Source: an uncultured Eggerthellaceae bacterium (GTDB taxonomy: Bacteria > Actinomycetota > Coriobacteriia > Coriobacteriales > Eggerthellaceae). From it: 64,000 nucleotides of DNA. Location of the stretch: NCBI GenBank assembly GCA_910580205.1, contig CAJTVP010000004.1, positions 1,519 through 65,518 on the forward strand, read 5' to 3'. Positions 35,300-41,669 of the stretch are shown here, piece by piece; the stretch's first letter is position 1; each line of letters begins with the position of its first letter. The notes beneath the pieces were generated by a model. That model had not been told where the DNA came from. It saw only the letters and a list, made by a program, of their open reading frames with translations, and ran no database searches. Made by a program: the position numbers and the translations under genes.

Positions 35300-35579
35300 G
35301 GAGCATCCTTCCTGAAAAGCTGATTTTAAGATTCTGTACTACCAAGCTTACATCATCAGCTCTCGTTCGGCTTGTATATCGCCATCCATGACGAGAAGAA
35401 AAAAGGAAAGACAATCATCGAACCGGGACTTAGAATGAAAAGTCTGCCAAATGAGGCGATCATAAGAGAGGTTAAGAAGCGGACGTTCTCCGTATCCTCT
35501 GCTGAAAAGCTGCTTTTCATCAACAAATACGGTGAGGTCATTGACATCAAATATGTGTCTCTTTAGTGTCTTTCTTGAT

Positions 35580-35630
35580 AAAGCGCCAGAAAGGTACGTT
35601 AGCTACCTGCTCGGGCGCTTTCTCATTTCT
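35580..35630. terminator. Long imperfect hairpin with T-rich tail (candidate terminator)
   Basis: AAAGCGCCAG..AGGTA-CGTTAGC-TACCT..CGGGCGCTTT followed by CTCATTTCT. The reverse strand also gives TTTAT after the stem. Confidence 0.35.
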
Positions 35631-35868
35631 GTAAAACGTCCAAACGGTGCATATTGAACCTACTTCGGGCGCTTTGCATTGTCTGCCCTAAACGGAGCAG
35701 GATGAGCACGGACGTCTTCGGCGGTTGTGGTGTCAAGGAATATCCGCTCGACAGTTGGAAAGGCTCACGAGAATCGGCAGATGATCGGTTCGCAAAGTAT
35801 GTGAGAATCACCGCGCTGTGTGATCGCGCCCATTTACCTCGTCTCTTCGGGTGCAATGTCAAAAGTCA

Positions 35869-37872
35869 TTAGTGGTGACGCCAGTTTGGACATCCTGTTC
35901 CTTTTTGTAGATGAGCTGGGTGTGCTTTCCAAATATTTCCACACACTTTGCAACGAACCTTTATTTTCGTTCTCGATGTTTGATATTCTTCTAGAAGCTC
36001 AATATCGGGATTATTCAATTCGACTCTTTCTTTGAACTCTGTAGGTGAAACTCTGCGCTTTAGGCCTCTATTGCGCTTCGAGCATGTGGGGCAACCTTTT
36101 GATTGCAAGACCCTATTTGGACGGGCGCGCCATATATTTCCGCAGTTAGCGCACCGAAACCTAATCTCAGTATTGCCATGAGTATAGTTTTCAAGCGCTT
36201 CAATATCGGGATGTGTTTGTCGGAGTTCCTTCATGAAATAGTCATGAGTCTTTGTTTGCTTTTTCGCTCTAGTTTTATTTGCGCATTTCGGGCAATCGTG
36301 TCCCTGAAGAAGGTTCTGTGGTGTTGCAGTCCATTCATGCGCACACACCCGGCACCTTGCTTCTATCTTCGTTAGGCGATCGACATATCGTCCTACAATC
36401 TCTATCGTTGAGCTAACATCGGCCATTGCTTCTACAAATTCGTCATGAGACATGCGCTTTGAGTACCTTAATGCATTTGCAATGATTTCCTTCCATTGCG
36501 CTTCCTTAATATCGGGCTTTAGATCTGGATTGCAGAGGAGAAGAATCTTGCTGACTATCTCTTTCAATGTTTTATATCCCGATTCTTCGGCAAGTGAGCC
36601 ACTATATAGAAAGAAGTCCTTTTCCTGTGCAGCTTCAATGGTGGAAATAGGTACAGTGTCGTAAATGACGATGAGGCGGATTCCTTTAGAGTGACAGATC
36701 TCCTTTTTCTTTTTATCTTCGGCAAGCTTGTCCTTATGCCAAAACCAAGCGCCTGGTTCTATGGCAATCTGGTATTCAGGGATATAGATATCGAGCTCTC
36801 GTCCAATGGTCTTTTTATCGCGGGATACAACTTTTCCCTTACCTAATACATATTCAAGCGCAAAGAAAAGGAATTGCTCCATAAATGATGTTCCGGATAT
36901 CGCGCATCTCGGACAACCGCTTCGAGTTAATAATGACTGAGGAGCAGCTATCCATTTATTGTCACAAATCTTGCAATGGAACTCCAATTTCGTATGGCTG
37001 TTTACATACTTACCCAACGGTTCAATATTTGGATTAACTTGATTTAGCTCCTTAATAAAATCATCATGCGATTTACTCAGCATTTGTGCAATCTTTTCTT
37101 TGCGGCATCCGGGACAACCAGAGGATCTTAGTAAATCAACAGGAGCCTTTTTCCAATTACTGTTGCAAACACGGCAATAACAATCCATCGGCGTAGCTGA
37201 ATCAATATATTCTCCGTGAATCTCAAGAGTGGGAAACTTTTCTGCAGCCATATGAAAAAAACGTTCGGCTCTTTTCTTTTTCATATCCCTTTTGCGGCAT
37301 AAGGAGCAATGGCAGTTCTTCTCAAGTGCAGATGCAATAGAAGTCCACTCATGTCCGCATACCCCGCAACGACACGATATTCCATCATGCGCAGTAATAT
37401 ATTCACTCAACAATTCGATATTAGGGTTTATGACATGGATTCTATTTGAAAACTCTTCATGCCTGATAGGTGTTCTTCCTCGCATTTTTTTTCTTGCGCA
37501 GAGAGGGCAACCATGCCCTTTTCTGAGCGTGCTCGGATTTGCATCCCATTCGTTGTTACAGATTTCACATCTACAAAGAATTTTATGCTTCGTATCTTGA
37601 TACATCCCCAATAAAGTCACATCTGGAAGAACTCCTTTTATCTCCGCTTCAAACTCCTCATGCGACTTCTTGCTATTACGATATCCTGAACAATCAATAC
37701 AACCAGCACCGTGAAGCAAATTGCCTGCATTAGCGCTCCAGATACGATTGCATTTACTGCATTGCACTTTAACGTGTTTTTGAACGCCTTTGTATAATCC
37801 TAAGATCTTGATACTGGGGTTGACCTCTTTCATCTCTGCAACAAACTGATCTTGCGTTCTCTTAAGCGCCAT
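35869..37872 (-). CDS. Eight-fold zinc-ribbon repeat protein (DUF4379-like modules) with central Vsr/DUF559-like PD-(D/E)xK nuclease domain
   Basis: 667-aa ORF behind a strong AGGAG RBS. CxxC...(G)CPxC pairs at aa 38/61, 102/125, 169/192, 233/256, 300/323, 507/530, 574/597 and 641/664, with a period of 64-67 aa. Core at aa 325-405: SFMEQFL...ELDIYIPEYQIAIEPGAWFWH...KGIRLIVIYD. Confidence 0.75.
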   Translation of the reverse strand: MALKRTQDQFVAEMKEVNPSIKILGLYKGVQKHVKVQCSKCNRIWSANAGNLLHGAGCIDCSGYRNSKKSHEEFEAEIKGVLPDVTLLGMYQDTKHKILCRCEICNNEWDANPSTLRKGHGCPLCARKKMRGRTPIRHEEFSNRIHVINPNIELLSEYITAHDGISCRCGVCGHEWTSIASALEKNCHCSLCRKRDMKKKRAERFFHMAAEKFPTLEIHGEYIDSATPMDCYCRVCNSNWKKAPVDLLRSSGCPGCRKEKIAQMLSKSHDDFIKELNQVNPNIEPLGKYVNSHTKLEFHCKICDNKWIAAPQSLLTRSGCPRCAISGTSFMEQFLFFALEYVLGKGKVVSRDKKTIGRELDIYIPEYQIAIEPGAWFWHKDKLAEDKKKKEICHSKGIRLIVIYDTVPISTIEAAQEKDFFLYSGSLAEESGYKTLKEIVSKILLLCNPDLKPDIKEAQWKEIIANALRYSKRMSHDEFVEAMADVSSTIEIVGRYVDRLTKIEARCRVCAHEWTATPQNLLQGHDCPKCANKTRAKKQTKTHDYFMKELRQTHPDIEALENYTHGNTEIRFRCANCGNIWRARPNRVLQSKGCPTCSKRNRGLKRRVSPTEFKERVELNNPDIELLEEYQTSRTKIKVRCKVCGNIWKAHPAHLQKGTGCPNWRHH

Positions 37873-38000
37873 ACATCGACTCCTACATTTATTGATTCAA
37901 GGCGTAATCATAAGACAATTTTGAGTAAATTGAGTATTCTCTACAAGACCGTCTCTGTTGGGTCTTATCAGAGTTCTAACAAATTGAAAGAGGATTTATG

Positions 38001-38145
38001 CCGATCATACTAGACCCAAAAACAGACCCAAAACGTGATTCTGTCCCCCAGGAATCAAAAAGGACAGGAGCGAAAATAACTCCTGGCCTCGGCATTCAAA
38101 TGGCGGGATGTACGAGACTTGAACTCGCGACCTCCGACGTGACAG
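38001..38145. repeat. Direct repeat copy A (tRNA-Asp 3' part + terminator-like flank), partner of 41492..41638
   Basis: 38101-38145 is identical (45/45) to 41594-41638. 38001-38100 has about 8 mismatches and 1 indel versus 41492-41593. Weaker similarity extends about 40 nt further left. Confidence 0.85.
38101..38145 (-). pseudogene. 3' 45-nt fragment of tRNA-Asp (anticodon loop to CCA), att scar
   Basis: Identity to the intact tRNA breaks exactly at the 5' edge of the anticodon loop (CTGTCAC). The upstream sequence cannot form the anticodon stem. Confidence 0.85.
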
Positions 38146-38343
38146 AAGGGAGTTCGTTCGATATCGCACTCTAGATTCTTCGTTAGGATCGTCTTATAAG
38201 AGTTGATTCTTTGTACGTTCGACAACCACAAATAGTACCTCTGAACAGGTATTTTATTATCGTTCTTCAGGATTGCGAAAGTTATCTTGATGGATATGCC
38301 TCTCATGTTTAAGGCGCTCACCGCTTGATGCTCAAACCAAGTT

Positions 38344-38371
38344 AGCCGTTTAAGCCGTTTAGGACGGTTTA
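38344..38371 (+). repeat. Tandem 9-10-mers AGCCGTTTA AGCCGTTTA GGACGGTTTA
   Basis: Read directly. Lies 8 nt upstream of the third CCCAAAAACAGACCCAA motif copy. Confidence 0.6.
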
Positions 38372-38549
38372 AGTTGAACCCAAAAACAGACCCAATTTTG
38401 TTTTTAGCGAGATTGGAACCAAATATGCTATCTGATAATGAGTTGCATGTCCTTTTTCAAATCTTTTGAAAAGTAATGGAGTCATTTCAGTATTGCTATG
38501 CTGAACTATAATTTCTTGCAAACCACATCTAGCGTGTTAGGGAAAGCCA

Positions 38550-39614
38550 ATGTCTGAAGAGCAAAATAATGTATTGAATGACCGTGAGCTTGATGAACTG
38601 GATAAGCTGAAAGCTAAATATGAAAAAATGACTGAACCAGGCATGCTTCAGAAAGCTGGAGATGTTATCGGTTCTATTATTCCGGCACCAATCAAGGACA
38701 CTGTCAACAATATTGGGGAAACTATTACTGAGCAACAATTCTACGAGGAAGCTATGCAGATAGTTGCACAAGGCTTTAATGCGCTTGAAGAGCAGGCTGC
38801 AAAGGTTACTATCAGCAAAGAAACCGTAGTTAAAAGAGCAAATGAATATATAGACGGTAGAACAATCTCATCCATTCAAGAGCTTTGCTTTGCAAGGAGT
38901 TACGAAGTAGCAAAGATTGCGGATTCGGAAAAGATACCTAGCCTGTTATCAGCAACCGTTGAAGGTGGAGCTACGGGATTCCTTGGTTTTGTTGGCATTA
39001 TTCCTAACATCGTTACGAGTACATTCTGCTACTACAGGGCTGTTCAGTCTATTGCTGTATCTTATGGATATGATGTGAGAGACGATCCAAACGAACTCAT
39101 GATAGCTAGTGAGGTATTCACGAGCGCCATGTCGCCACGTTCTAGCAAAGCAGGAGAGATGGCTGGCATAATCGGAAAGCTAATGCTGATTAGCGAAGCC
39201 GAAGCTGTAAAGCAAACGATAAAAAAGGGATGGACAGAGATGGCTGCCTGTGGAGGCATACGTCTTCTGTTAACTCAGATGCGCGCATTAGCTCATAAAG
39301 CTGCAAAAAAGGCGCTAGAGAAAGCAGGAAAAGAAGGACTCGAAAACTCTGTTTTTAGAAGTATTCTAGAGCAAATTGGTAAGCGTCTTGGGCAAAAAGC
39401 AGTTCAACGTGCAGTTCCGTTTGTATCCGCAGTCATTGGTGCTTTTTTTGATACTGGCGAGATGAACAAAGTCATTACATTCGCAGATACGTTTTATAGG
39501 AAAAGATTTATTCTGGAGAAGGGAATGCGTCAGGCAGAATTTAATGCGCCAGAAGCTATGACTATTTTGCCTGAATGCACTAATGAAGAAAAAATGACTT
39601 CTTCAGACGAATAG
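38550..39614 (+). CDS. EcsC family protein (orphan)
   Basis: GGATGFLGFVGIIPNIVTSTFCYYRAVQSIAVSYGYDVRDDPNE and AVPFVSAVIGAFFDTGEMNKVITFADTFYRKRF closely parallel the two conserved blocks of B. subtilis EcsC. Confidence 0.85.
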   Translation: MSEEQNNVLNDRELDELDKLKAKYEKMTEPGMLQKAGDVIGSIIPAPIKDTVNNIGETITEQQFYEEAMQIVAQGFNALEEQAAKVTISKETVVKRANEYIDGRTISSIQELCFARSYEVAKIADSEKIPSLLSATVEGGATGFLGFVGIIPNIVTSTFCYYRAVQSIAVSYGYDVRDDPNELMIASEVFTSAMSPRSSKAGEMAGIIGKLMLISEAEAVKQTIKKGWTEMAACGGIRLLLTQMRALAHKAAKKALEKAGKEGLENSVFRSILEQIGKRLGQKAVQRAVPFVSAVIGAFFDTGEMNKVITFADTFYRKRFILEKGMRQAEFNAPEAMTILPECTNEEKMTSSDE

Positions 39615-39703
39615 TTTTGGCTTTCTCATTGGCACAAGCTGTCCTATTTTAAAACCACAATCTACTACACAAGATGAGTATTCACTCAAAATACTTCCTG
39701 CAA

Positions 39704-40543
39704 TTAGCCGAACAGAATCCTCGGTTCGCAAGGTAAATCATTTACCTCTATACATCTGAGAATCAACTTATGAAGTAAAGAGGCAGTGGACTCAACTGCA
39801 TTCTCGTTTTTTACAGTTCCCGTATGAACTGCCTTAGACCTGTCGTCATAGAGCTTTTTGATTGCGTCATACTCATCCATTTCACCATTAAGAAACTTTG
39901 ATGCAAGAAGACTAATCCTAAATCGCAATTCAGCCTGCACCCCAAACAATGTCTCAATTCCAGCCCACAATATTGCAAGTTGCACAGATGGACGAACACT
40001 TTGCTTGTAGCTCCATAAGGCATTGACCGCATTAGCGAAAGCTGGTTTTTCCATTAGATCTGAAGCTGAAATAAAAACAGATTCAATGAAAGTACATTCC
40101 TCTGGTGTTACTGTTTCAATAGAGCGAGGCAAAAACAAACGAGACGACATGACGACATTCATGAACGATGACTGATTAAATTGGTCTGCACTAACATTGC
40201 ATTGCAGATTCCAGTAAATCTCTTTATGTAAGAGAGCGGACAGCAAACAAATATCGGTTTGGGCGTTCCAGAGATTGGTTACGAGAGAGCGACCATCAGG
40301 AGATTTTACTTTTATATGGAGTTGAGCTCTTGTTGATCTTAGTGTTGCTATTACAATGCCAAGATCTATTTCACTCTTACTTCCATGCTTCATTATCGAA
40401 TCTATCATCGCATCAGGGTCAGGTTGGCATTCTATTGGCTCTAAAACGGTATTTTGATTAAGTCTGATTTCTGAGCCAGGTTCAATACCAATAAGATAGA
40501 GATACCCTTCCGTTTCGCCCGTTTTTGCACGAATTGATGTCAT
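39704..40543 (-). CDS. Hypothetical protein with C-terminal HEPN-like domain (Rx4H motif)
   Basis: 279 aa. KKLYDDRSKAVHTG (R235-x4-H240) sits in an all-helical C-terminal 130 aa, as in abortive-infection HEPN families. The N-terminal 150 aa are unrecognised. Confidence 0.65.
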   Translation of the reverse strand: MTSIRAKTGETEGYLYLIGIEPGSEIRLNQNTVLEPIECQPDPDAMIDSIMKHGSKSEIDLGIVIATLRSTRAQLHIKVKSPDGRSLVTNLWNAQTDICLLSALLHKEIYWNLQCNVSADQFNQSSFMNVVMSSRLFLPRSIETVTPEECTFIESVFISASDLMEKPAFANAVNALWSYKQSVRPSVQLAILWAGIETLFGVQAELRFRISLLASKFLNGEMDEYDAIKKLYDDRSKAVHTGTVKNENAVESTASLLHKLILRCIEVNDLPCEPRILFG

Positions 40544-40618
40544 GAAGTCCCCAAACTGCCCCGAACGGATAAACTATCCTGGTTATCTTTTTACAATTAA
40601 GCGCACCTTATGGGCTAT

Positions 40619-41275
40619 TTAACTCTTGGTTTCCATCCTGTCACGCATATCGCTCAGGATCTCGCCTTTATACGAGAAATATGCAGGTCCTTGCCTTGAT
40701 ATGTCATCAGCAAACAAGGATTCAGCTAATGCGGACAATGTCATGGTTTGACCGTTGTGTTCGACATGCCTGTCGTCGACAACTGTTGCAATGACTCTTT
40801 TATCCTTTACAAAGACCACTTCCTCGCCAGCATCAACACCTACCATGCTGAACTTGAATGGTGGCCTGCGCTTACTGACAGCCTCAGCAACCATTTCGTC
40901 TTCGACCTCTTCTTTGGTCGGCTTCCAACGCTTTAGGTTCGCTTCTGTGCCAGAGATTCTCGCAATAGCTTCGAGAAGATCAAATGCAGCTTCAGGAGTC
41001 ATAGCAAAAAACTCCCGAACTCGGGTTTTGCCTTTGTATTCTTCAATAGTATGCAGATCGGGATTAAGGTCATCTATTAACTTGTGCAGAGATTTATCGG
41101 TAAGTTTAGAAGTAACGGAATAAGTAGCATAAACGCGAAATGCGAATGGTACGGCAGATGACGCATTTAGCTGGCTCAGTCTCTTCTCGACATCAATCGC
41201 AAAACCGATTTTTACATAATCAGGAAAGCTTGGATTGGTAAAGATATAGATGTAGCCTGATTTCTCTTTCGTCAT
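40619..41275 (-). CDS. T5orf172 / GIY-YIG superfamily nuclease-domain protein with small C-terminal domain
   Basis: GYIYIFTNPSFPDYVKIGFA...KRLSQLN...VPFAF...REFF matches the T5orf172 (MUG113) pattern. C-terminal PPFKFSMVGVDAGEEVVFVKD...HNGQTMTLSALAESL module. Confidence 0.8.
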   Translation of the reverse strand: MTKEKSGYIYIFTNPSFPDYVKIGFAIDVEKRLSQLNASSAVPFAFRVYATYSVTSKLTDKSLHKLIDDLNPDLHTIEEYKGKTRVREFFAMTPEAAFDLLEAIARISGTEANLKRWKPTKEEVEDEMVAEAVSKRRPPFKFSMVGVDAGEEVVFVKDKRVIATVVDDRHVEHNGQTMTLSALAESLFADDISRQGPAYFSYKGEILSDMRDRMETKS

Positions 41276-41491
41276 TATTGTCTGCCTATCTATTTATCTA
41301 AAAATGCCACCGTGAACTATGTAATCTCGATGTAAGACTAACCCTTATTTTATTACACGTAGAAATCACAGCCACTCAATGTAGGTCATTCTTCCTCGAG
41401 CATTCCCGCACCATCAAGTATCTCATTGTTTGGTGAGATCTCCGATGGGTCTCATCAGAACCCTAACGAACCGGGAGTTGTCTGACTTATT

Positions 41492-41669
<178 letters not shown>

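Follow-up and report, generated by a model that had tools for sequence, protein, structure and literature searches.

The locus described here raises the question of whether two neighbouring nuclease-like genes work together as a defence system or have simply come to lie side by side. They are situated in a window of 64,000 nucleotides, the whole stretch of DNA that was analysed, from contig CAJTVP010000004.1 of an uncultured Eggerthellaceae bacterium (assembly GCA_910580205.1). An initial annotation, made from the letters alone, had proposed that one of them (gene 1), with a T5orf172 domain of the GIY-YIG nuclease superfamily, and the other (gene 2), with the Rx4-6H signature of HEPN RNases, form an uncharacterised two-nuclease defence module. 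Both open reading frames (ORFs) are found at the positions then given (Table 1); they encode proteins of 218 and 279 residues, are co-directional on the minus strand and are separated by 75 bp, as had been described. We consider it likely that gene 1 and gene 2 are separate cargo genes, each standing alone, which chance has brought together in a hotspot, and, jointly with this, that the locus, in an uncultured gut Coriobacteriia genome, represents a small accessory islet at a tRNA-Asp gene, without an integrase and with three single-gene cargo cassettes unrelated to one another. PADLOC already catalogues the candidate family of gene 1 (PDC-S57); gene 2, judging by its motifs, is of the HEPN kind, and Pfam, NCBIfam and PADLOC have no entry for its family.

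The distribution of the two families carries this answer. On the side of gene 1, 84 T5orf172-seeded loci were gathered, and the best 80 of at least 529 species-genome loci (75 of them with at least 1 kb of downstream sequence) were searched, within approximately 6 kb, with full-length and wide-family hidden Markov models (HMMs) of gene 2 at E<=1. On the side of gene 2, 107 loci in 60 distinct contexts, with 808 kb of flank and with 80 metagenome and nine viral loci added, were searched with the PDC-S57 profile (E<=1e-2) and by tblastn; at least 1 kb of upstream sequence is present in 37 of the 60 contexts. ORFs in the fetched loci were called mechanically. No gene 2 relative was detected near the T5orf172 relatives (0/84 loci), and neither profile nor tblastn matched a T5orf172 gene near the gene 2 relatives (0/107 loci). 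Both genes were found together only in four short contigs, which are identical copies of the islet, and the closest non-identical relative of gene 1 (89%, locus P0020) is located among FIVAR, DUF4012 and glycosyltransferase/cell-wall genes, without gene 2. The possibility of a disguised T5orf172 protein was considered for two upstream neighbours of gene 2 homologues, a 219-aa gene (L001) and a 152-aa gene (L007), and discarded, as they are without similarity or Pfam domain. Literature searches found no report of a T5orf172 and HEPN pairing. Since co-occurrence is zero in both directions, the pair is not a conserved system: the comparison of homologues called for by the initial annotation found the partner absent both ways, an outcome that the annotation itself had named as refuting its proposal, and the claim of a paired module is not supported. 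The accompanying claim that no named system is matched is partly wrong, since gene 1 alone corresponds to PDC-S57; gene 2 has no PADLOC match. Accretion of cassettes in the hotspot would have made the two genes adjacent.

By its sequence, gene 1 is built as a free-standing GIY-YIG endonuclease, in which an N-terminal catalytic domain with an intact Tyr/Tyr/Arg/Glu set is followed by a linker and a small C-terminal domain. The T5orf172 pattern recognised initially is borne out by Pfam PF10544 above its curated threshold (E=1e-12, 48.9 bits with a cut-off of 20, residues 7-103 on model positions 1-99 of 101), and MUG113 is matched as well (E=3e-8, 34.4 bits, cut-off 22.3). Furthermore, the protein matches PADLOC PDC-S57 end to end (PDLC05043, E=1.3e-90, positions 5-216 of 221; PDLC05041, E=6e-49), a family name in which we take the “S” to stand for single-gene. 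Among 27 relatives, Y10, Y20, K22, G24, R32, N37 and E88 are invariant or nearly so, forming the motifs I9-Y10-I11 and Y20-x-K22-I-G24, according to the criteria used for Odn of phage ICP1 (PMC8263062). Two of the three catalytic residues named at first, R32 and E88, are thus conserved; the third, Y8, is not, and its position is occupied by Val in 21 of the 27. The T5orf172 domain of Odn has been shown to be a nuclease dependent on the conserved Glu (PMC8263062), and DNA cleavage is most likely the activity of gene 1 as well, with a C-terminal domain that would bind DNA. PDB sequence searches gave no match for gene 1 alone and only noise for the PDC-S57 profile, and no mention of PDC-S57 was found in the literature. 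A word-indexed search gave 1,357 hits. The family is present in at least 529 species genomes at 50-60% identity, an unusual degree of conservation, with members in Bacteroidota, Bacillota, Coriobacteriia, Kiritimatiellae, Spirochaetes and Saccharibacteria as well as in a metagenome-assembled genome (MAG) of the archaeon Methanocorpusculum.

The habitual neighbours of the gene 1 family are Type I/IIG restriction-modification (R-M) genes, and the gene itself typically travels alone. The two largest clusters of neighbours are an N6_Mtase+Methylase_S(+Eco57I) protein of approximately 1,250 residues, that is, a fusion of methylase and specificity subunit (M-S), and HsdR. By tblastn with single example queries, HsdR was found in 26 of the 80 best loci (L023-L102), the M-S fusion in 16, and either of them in 35, which is a lower bound, so that R-M adjacency holds for at least 35 of these best 80 loci. 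No R-M gene was detectable in the window. This company poses the question of whether PDC-S57 proteins are accessory or back-up nucleases of R-M systems or selfish endonucleases that target R-M loci.

Concerning gene 2, AlphaFold2 (AF2) gave a confident two-domain model (predicted local distance difference test, pLDDT, 92; predicted template-modelling score, pTM, 0.90), and the C-terminal domain alone was modelled equally well. A Foldseek search with the full-length model against PDB and BFVD detected no relatives of known fold for the N-terminal α/β domain. This domain is exchanged for other N-termini in the wider family, in which matches restricted to the C-terminal domain occur in proteins of approximately 300 residues. 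Two alignments were used, one of 17 family members (A1) and one of 52 diverse relatives at 18-33% identity (A2). R235, S236, A238, V239 and H240 are invariant in A1; R235 and H240 remain so in A2, down to 18% identity, and S236 is conserved there at 90% or more. E205 and R209, the ends of an Ex3R motif, are likewise invariant in A1 and conserved at 90% or more in A2. In the model, RSKAVH closes helix 222-241, after which a loop (242-248) leads to the last long helix (249-267). The HEPN superfamily has been defined by a conserved Rx4-6H motif, a polar residue after the Arg, placement of that motif where helix 3 ends and the loop towards helix 4 begins, and an upstream acidic residue, typically in an Ex3[KR] context (Anantharaman et al., 2013; PMC3710099), and all four sequence and position features are present in gene 2. 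The RSKAVH motif is found at residues 235-240, exactly where the initial annotation had located it, and the invariance of five of its residues in A1, and of R235 and H240 in A2, places it beyond chance.

The assignment of gene 2 to a named family was tried without success, as Pfam, NCBIfam and PADLOC gave no match for the protein. Its sole match in a named library is phrog_28161, a PHROG of unknown function, which covers residues 159-276 (E=1.9e-22). PDB sequence searches were empty for the gene 2 family (one sequence, two profiles) and for the Escherichia coli relative described below. Structurally, the top Foldseek match of the isolated C-terminal domain in PDB is the HEPN protein AF_0298 (2hsb; E 0.47, probability 0.69, TM-score 0.41-0.42), and the remainder of the list consists largely of generic helical bundles; with the full-length model nothing fell below E 0.1 against PDB and BFVD, Csm6 and 2hsb being weak. 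Because there is no significant PDB match, the HEPN call rests on the motifs, this sub-threshold top match and the RefSeq product name of a relative. The HEPN claim of the initial annotation therefore stands at the level of motifs and lacks a significant profile or fold match; on balance, we regard a HEPN identity of the C-terminal domain as quite likely.

The relative in question is WP_001403134.1, a 310-aa protein named “HEPN domain-containing protein” by RefSeq and present in 27 of 5,426 complete E. coli genomes. It aligns with the C-terminal domain of gene 2 (40% over 117 residues, E=2e-25) and has in common with it the motifs WAG-E, ELRFR and KKLYxxRSKAVHG. The RefSeq name was not reproduced here: members of this subfamily among the 52 scanned relatives (A2), 37-47% identical to WP_001403134.1, match no HEPN model and have no PADLOC model in common. 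Like gene 2, the E. coli gene is a single accessory gene; unlike it, its N-terminal half (approximately 160 residues) cannot be aligned with that of gene 2. Its place in P2-like prophages (L188-L191 and L196, the last being E. coli LD27-1, NZ_CP047594.1 2764232-2765164) is between the gene for tail-fibre assembly and that for the tail sheath, the slot in which P2 carries fun. The fun locus has been described as a second defence-enriched hotspot of P2 (Vassallo et al.; PMC9519451). An identity of WP_001403134.1 with P2 Fun/Z or another known phage protein was rejected after no match appeared in 50,697 isolated-phage records, and no literature on this protein was found.

The gene 2 family is much larger than it seems by simple search. 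The word-indexed search returned only 18 relatives, and an exhaustive profile search returned 1,873 representatives of clusters at 50% identity with E<=1e-3, and 580 with E<=1e-10; many of them, of approximately 300-320 residues, correspond to gene 2 in the last ~140 residues only. None of the 52 relatives scanned with Pfam, NCBIfam and PADLOC matches a HEPN model, two match the PADLOC candidate PDC-S31 (1e-9), and one contains in addition the region of a Type I specificity subunit (HsdS; PADLOC Specificity_I, E=5e-29). An all-against-all comparison of 157 immediate neighbours revealed no recurrent partner. For the first eight contexts, which came from exact look-up, the neighbours differ and none is a T5orf172 gene. 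They are an unrelated 219-aa gene with an 867-aa NUDIX-containing protein; a 152-aa uncharacterised protein; Pycsar PycC and PycTM with HigBA-like pairs; DndB next to a methylase; SLATT next to a CBASS SMODS/AGS_C cyclase; and IS21. PADLOC and Pfam annotation of 147 immediate neighbours (A6) added to this picture. The former matched PycC, a CBASS cyclase, AriA/GajA/Old-like ATPases, MADS mad3 and mad8, PDC-S15, PDC-S56 and an HsdS fragment; the latter PLDc_2, FRG, BrxA, DndB, DarA_C, SMODS/AGS_C, integrases, IS21 and P2-type tail sheath, tube and fibre genes. In the commonest human-gut context (31 contigs), the homologue lies downstream of an orphan HsdS fragment and is accompanied by capsule genes and a CAP12/Pycsar-type TIR protein. 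Such surroundings fit a defence-island gene that stands alone, with an effector domain that is conserved and N-terminal domains that can be exchanged. A habitual embedding in R-M loci, as in PrrC, was also considered and rejected: HsdR or M-S genes were found in 0/107 loci, L119 having only the orphan HsdS fragment beside capsule genes and the TIR protein.

Two side observations concern individual loci of this family. In two gut contigs (L004/L005), compared with L001-L003 and L006, the 219-aa gene upstream of a 78%-identical homologue gives way to Transposase_mut fragments and the homologue is intact, which indicates that the gene 2 homologue is independent of that upstream neighbour. In L013 and L015, different homologues lie close downstream of guaA (GMP synthase), one by Pycsar and the other by CBASS, which suggests a guaA-linked defence hotspot in these genomes.

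Some points weigh against the view of gene 1 and gene 2 as unrelated cargo of known kinds. A sequence scan found no terminator-like site in the 75-bp spacer, which leaves room for co-transcription and lineage-specific cooperation, and the two genes may be co-transcribed here; the co-occurrence test covers the best 80 of at least 529 T5orf172 loci, and many gene 2 loci are short contigs; PDC-S57 is a computational candidate only; and, for gene 2, no named HEPN model (Pfam, NCBIfam, PADLOC) and no PDB entry, by sequence or fold, is significantly matched. The first of these points, together with the co-directional arrangement and its identical recurrence in four other sequencing runs, could be read as the mark of a true, recently assembled, lineage-specific two-component system, in which either a DNase and an RNase effector or a toxin and its immunity or regulatory protein would be expressed from one promoter. 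At 100% identity, the recurring contigs are copies of this one islet and do not count as independent conservation. The zero co-occurrence both ways, the success of each family alone in many phyla with other neighbours, and an islet without MNT or other antitoxin-like gene, non-coding RNA or tandem repeat also argue against such a system, which we judge very improbable.

Even as independent genes, either of the two could be something other than supposed above. Gene 1 might be a selfish, free-standing homing-type endonuclease similar to I-TevI, invading conserved targets such as R-M loci. Its layout, with an N-terminal catalytic domain and a small conserved C-terminal one, would suit this role, as would its repeated siting beside hsdR and M-S genes, the presence of another homing-endonuclease-like gene in the next islet, and the 50-60% identity maintained over distant phyla, including an archaeal MAG, which implies frequent horizontal transfer; besides, the T5orf172 proteins of ICP1 are viewed as homing endonucleases or similar to them (PMC8096241; PMC8263062). 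The R-M adjacency is equally compatible with an accessory defence role, and it is for its association with defence islands that PADLOC counts the family among its defence candidates, so that we regard the selfish alternative as rather unlikely. For gene 2, the C-terminal domain could be a helical bundle other than an active HEPN RNase, with its Arg and His serving ligand or protein binding, in a non-nuclease exclusion function of the phage-moron type or in anti-defence. The lack of a significant match to any HEPN profile or structure, the generic bundles that fill the Foldseek lists, and the prophage-carried relatives, given that prophages encode defence and counter-defence genes alike, are in keeping with this. 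The four HEPN features with R and H invariant to 18% identity, a HEPN protein as the best structural match of the isolated domain, a clear homologue (E=2e-25) named HEPN by RefSeq, and chromosomal copies found among defence systems and not in phage early regions speak against it, and make this alternative unlikely.

Returning to the reading of independent cargo, the islet itself has well-defined boundaries. GC content is 0.40-0.49 from ~35.3 to ~41.6 kb, compared with ~0.62 in the flanks, and 0.40-0.44 in the 3.49-kb islet (gene 1, 0.44; gene 2, 0.40). The bounding direct repeats (198 nt at 86% by blastn, with a 153-nt core at 91-96%) contain the 3′ half of tRNA-Asp and reach ~110-150 nt past its 3′ end; AT-rich DNA bounded by tRNA-Asp repeats, as initially annotated, is therefore an accurate description. 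With a spacing of 3,492 bp, the copies enclose three genes and no others: gene 1, gene 2 and a convergent gene of the EcsC family. A 3,490-nt unit (window positions 38116-41605) is found, 100% identical, as a separate contig in other sequencing runs. Three exact copies of the 18-nt sequence ACCCAAAAACAGACCCAA are present. Two lie in the repeat copies (38014-38031 and 41505-41522), one in each; the third, at 38378-38395 and 364 nt within the islet, may be left over from an earlier junction. None of the ORFs of 35-41.6 kb resembles an integrase or has an integrase-like domain match, no third att-like repeat was found at the left edge of the low-GC region, and the islet contains neither a non-coding RNA other than the tRNA nor meaningful tandem repeats. 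It would have originated either through site-specific insertion at the tRNA-Asp gene or through an exchange of cassettes between the long repeats, and has no integrase at present. The flanking core genes identify the host as a member of the Coriobacteriia (Eggerthellaceae-like), in which the nearest named relatives of a flanking MiaB/MtaB-type protein (Adlercreutzia/Enterorhabdus, Gordonibacter, Slackia) are only ~55-56% identical.

The EcsC-family protein (354 residues) weakly matches, with its C-terminal part, the PADLOC candidates PDC-S29 (9.7e-11) and PDC-S30 (3e-5), and is possibly a third single-gene candidate of the islet; its association with genes 1 and 2 is confined to the identical islet contig. 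Past the distal tRNA repeat, a second low-GC segment holds a protein of 667 residues, in which Pfam recognises seven treble-clef zinc-finger repeats of the CapR-homology/DUF4379 type (E=1e-31 and 7.5e-28). Its PHROG matches, to the families “HNH endonuclease,” “endonuclease” and “homing endonuclease,” are strong (phrog_559, E=1e-108), and its central region reads ELDIYIPEYQIAIEPGAWFWH. This gene looks like a homing-endonuclease-like gene in a second islet, the left edge of which is without a repeat. Neither the EcsC-family nor the CapR-repeat protein travels with the gene 1 or the gene 2 family.

Table 1. Coordinates of the islet features in the window (nt, nucleotide positions; aa, residues).
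Feature	Position (nt)	Strand	Remarks
Gene 1, T5orf172/GIY-YIG protein, PDC-S57 family (218 aa)	40619..41275	-	Pfam, PADLOC
Gene 1 N-terminal nuclease domain (aa 7-103)	40967-41257	-	followed by linker
Gene 1 conserved C-terminal domain, ~75 aa (aa ~139-216)	40628-40861	-	
Spacer between gene 1 and gene 2	40544..40618	-	75 bp; GGGGA upstream of the gene 2 ATG
Gene 2 (279 aa)	39704..40543	-	
Gene 2 N-terminal α/β domain (aa 1-146)	40106..40543	-	AF2 pLDDT 92, pTM 0.90
Gene 2 C-terminal all-helical HEPN-like domain (aa 147-279)	39707..40105	-	AF2; phrog_28161
R235-S-K-A-V-H240 (Rx4H)	39824..39841	-	conservation, model position, PMC3710099 definition
E205-L-R-F-R209 (Ex3R)	39917..39931	-	upstream conserved acidic residue typical of HEPN
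Third islet gene, EcsC-family protein (354 aa)	38550..39614	+	convergent with gene 2; Pfam EcsC 2e-21
tRNA-Asp (anticodon GTC), islet anchor	41593..41669	-	ARAGORN; Rfam tRNA 67.5 bits
Proximal direct-repeat copy	41440..41637		tRNA-Asp 3′ half from anticodon arm, terminator hairpin, downstream flank
Distal direct-repeat copy	37953..38145		partial tRNA-Asp 3′ half and flank; far islet end
CapR-repeat protein (667 aa)	35869-37872	-	second low-GC segment, ~35300-37952

The data show the identities of the domains, the conservation of the motifs, the limits of the islet, the lack of co-occurrence and the wealth of defence genes in the neighbourhoods; from them we infer the catalytic activities of both proteins, the sensor and effector logic of gene 2 and any anti-phage function. 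Gene 1 would act as a DNA endonuclease whose C-terminal domain confers DNA binding, serving either as an accessory or back-up nuclease of R-M systems or as a selfish homing-type endonuclease. Gene 2 would be a metal-independent HEPN RNase of the abortive-infection (Abi) type: its N-terminal domain may sense a cue of infection, or hold the HEPN site inactive until such a cue arrives, and activation would lead to cleavage of RNA and growth arrest of the cell. Extending this to the relatives, we tentatively propose, as a possibility that falls short of being probable, that the gene 2 family is a large, uncatalogued family of stand-alone HEPN-type Abi RNases with swappable N-terminal sensor domains, spread over the defence islands of many phyla and occupying an accessory-gene slot in E. 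coli P2-like prophages. If true, it would represent a new single-gene anti-phage system, directly testable in E. coli; the test would be cheap and direct because a relative resides in E. coli P2-like prophages. As the proposed two-nuclease system is absent as a conserved unit, it is not worth pursuing as a pair, and the lead worth following is the gene 2 family as a single-gene HEPN defence candidate. Its confirmation would add one more single-gene HEPN Abi system, an incremental advance and not a conceptually new one, and neither gene would surprise a specialist.

Comparison with known systems places both genes in familiar company. Gene 1 has the same two-domain architecture of ~218 residues as PADLOC PDC-S57, with a full-length HMM match and nothing that differs in sequence; the difference lies in the surroundings, since Type I/IIG R-M neighbours are found in at least 35/80 loci elsewhere and none in the window. 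With ICP1 Odn (Gp88) and I-TevI-type enzymes gene 1 shares the GIY-YIG catalytic domain with conserved Arg and Glu, and the design of a nuclease joined to a separate specificity domain. In Odn, however, the T5orf172 domain is C-terminal and fused to a RepA_N DNA-binding domain, whereas the nuclease of gene 1 is N-terminal and its partner domain is small, C-terminal and without Pfam match. For gene 2, a HEPN-MNT system (HepT/MntA) was considered and rejected: the islet neighbours are T5orf172 and EcsC genes, no nucleotidyltransferase domain is found in the islet, and the 279-aa protein has an extra N-terminal domain. PrrC and RloC, the HEPN RNases of Type I R-M loci, differ in having an ABC-ATPase N-terminal domain, and in an R-M company found neither in the window nor, for HsdR and M-S genes, in the 107 family loci; their R-M link is echoed by the HsdS region of one relative and by the orphan HsdS of the commonest gut context. 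Unlike the HEPN Abi and toxin RNases AbiV, RnlA and HepT, gene 2 has no MNT, RnlB or AbiV-partner-like neighbour, no named-profile or significant structural match, and an N-terminal domain without relatives of known fold. What it shares with them is the all-helical domain, the Rx4H motif before the last helix with its polar residue, the upstream Ex3R, and, in its family, a stand-alone occurrence in defence islands and prophages.

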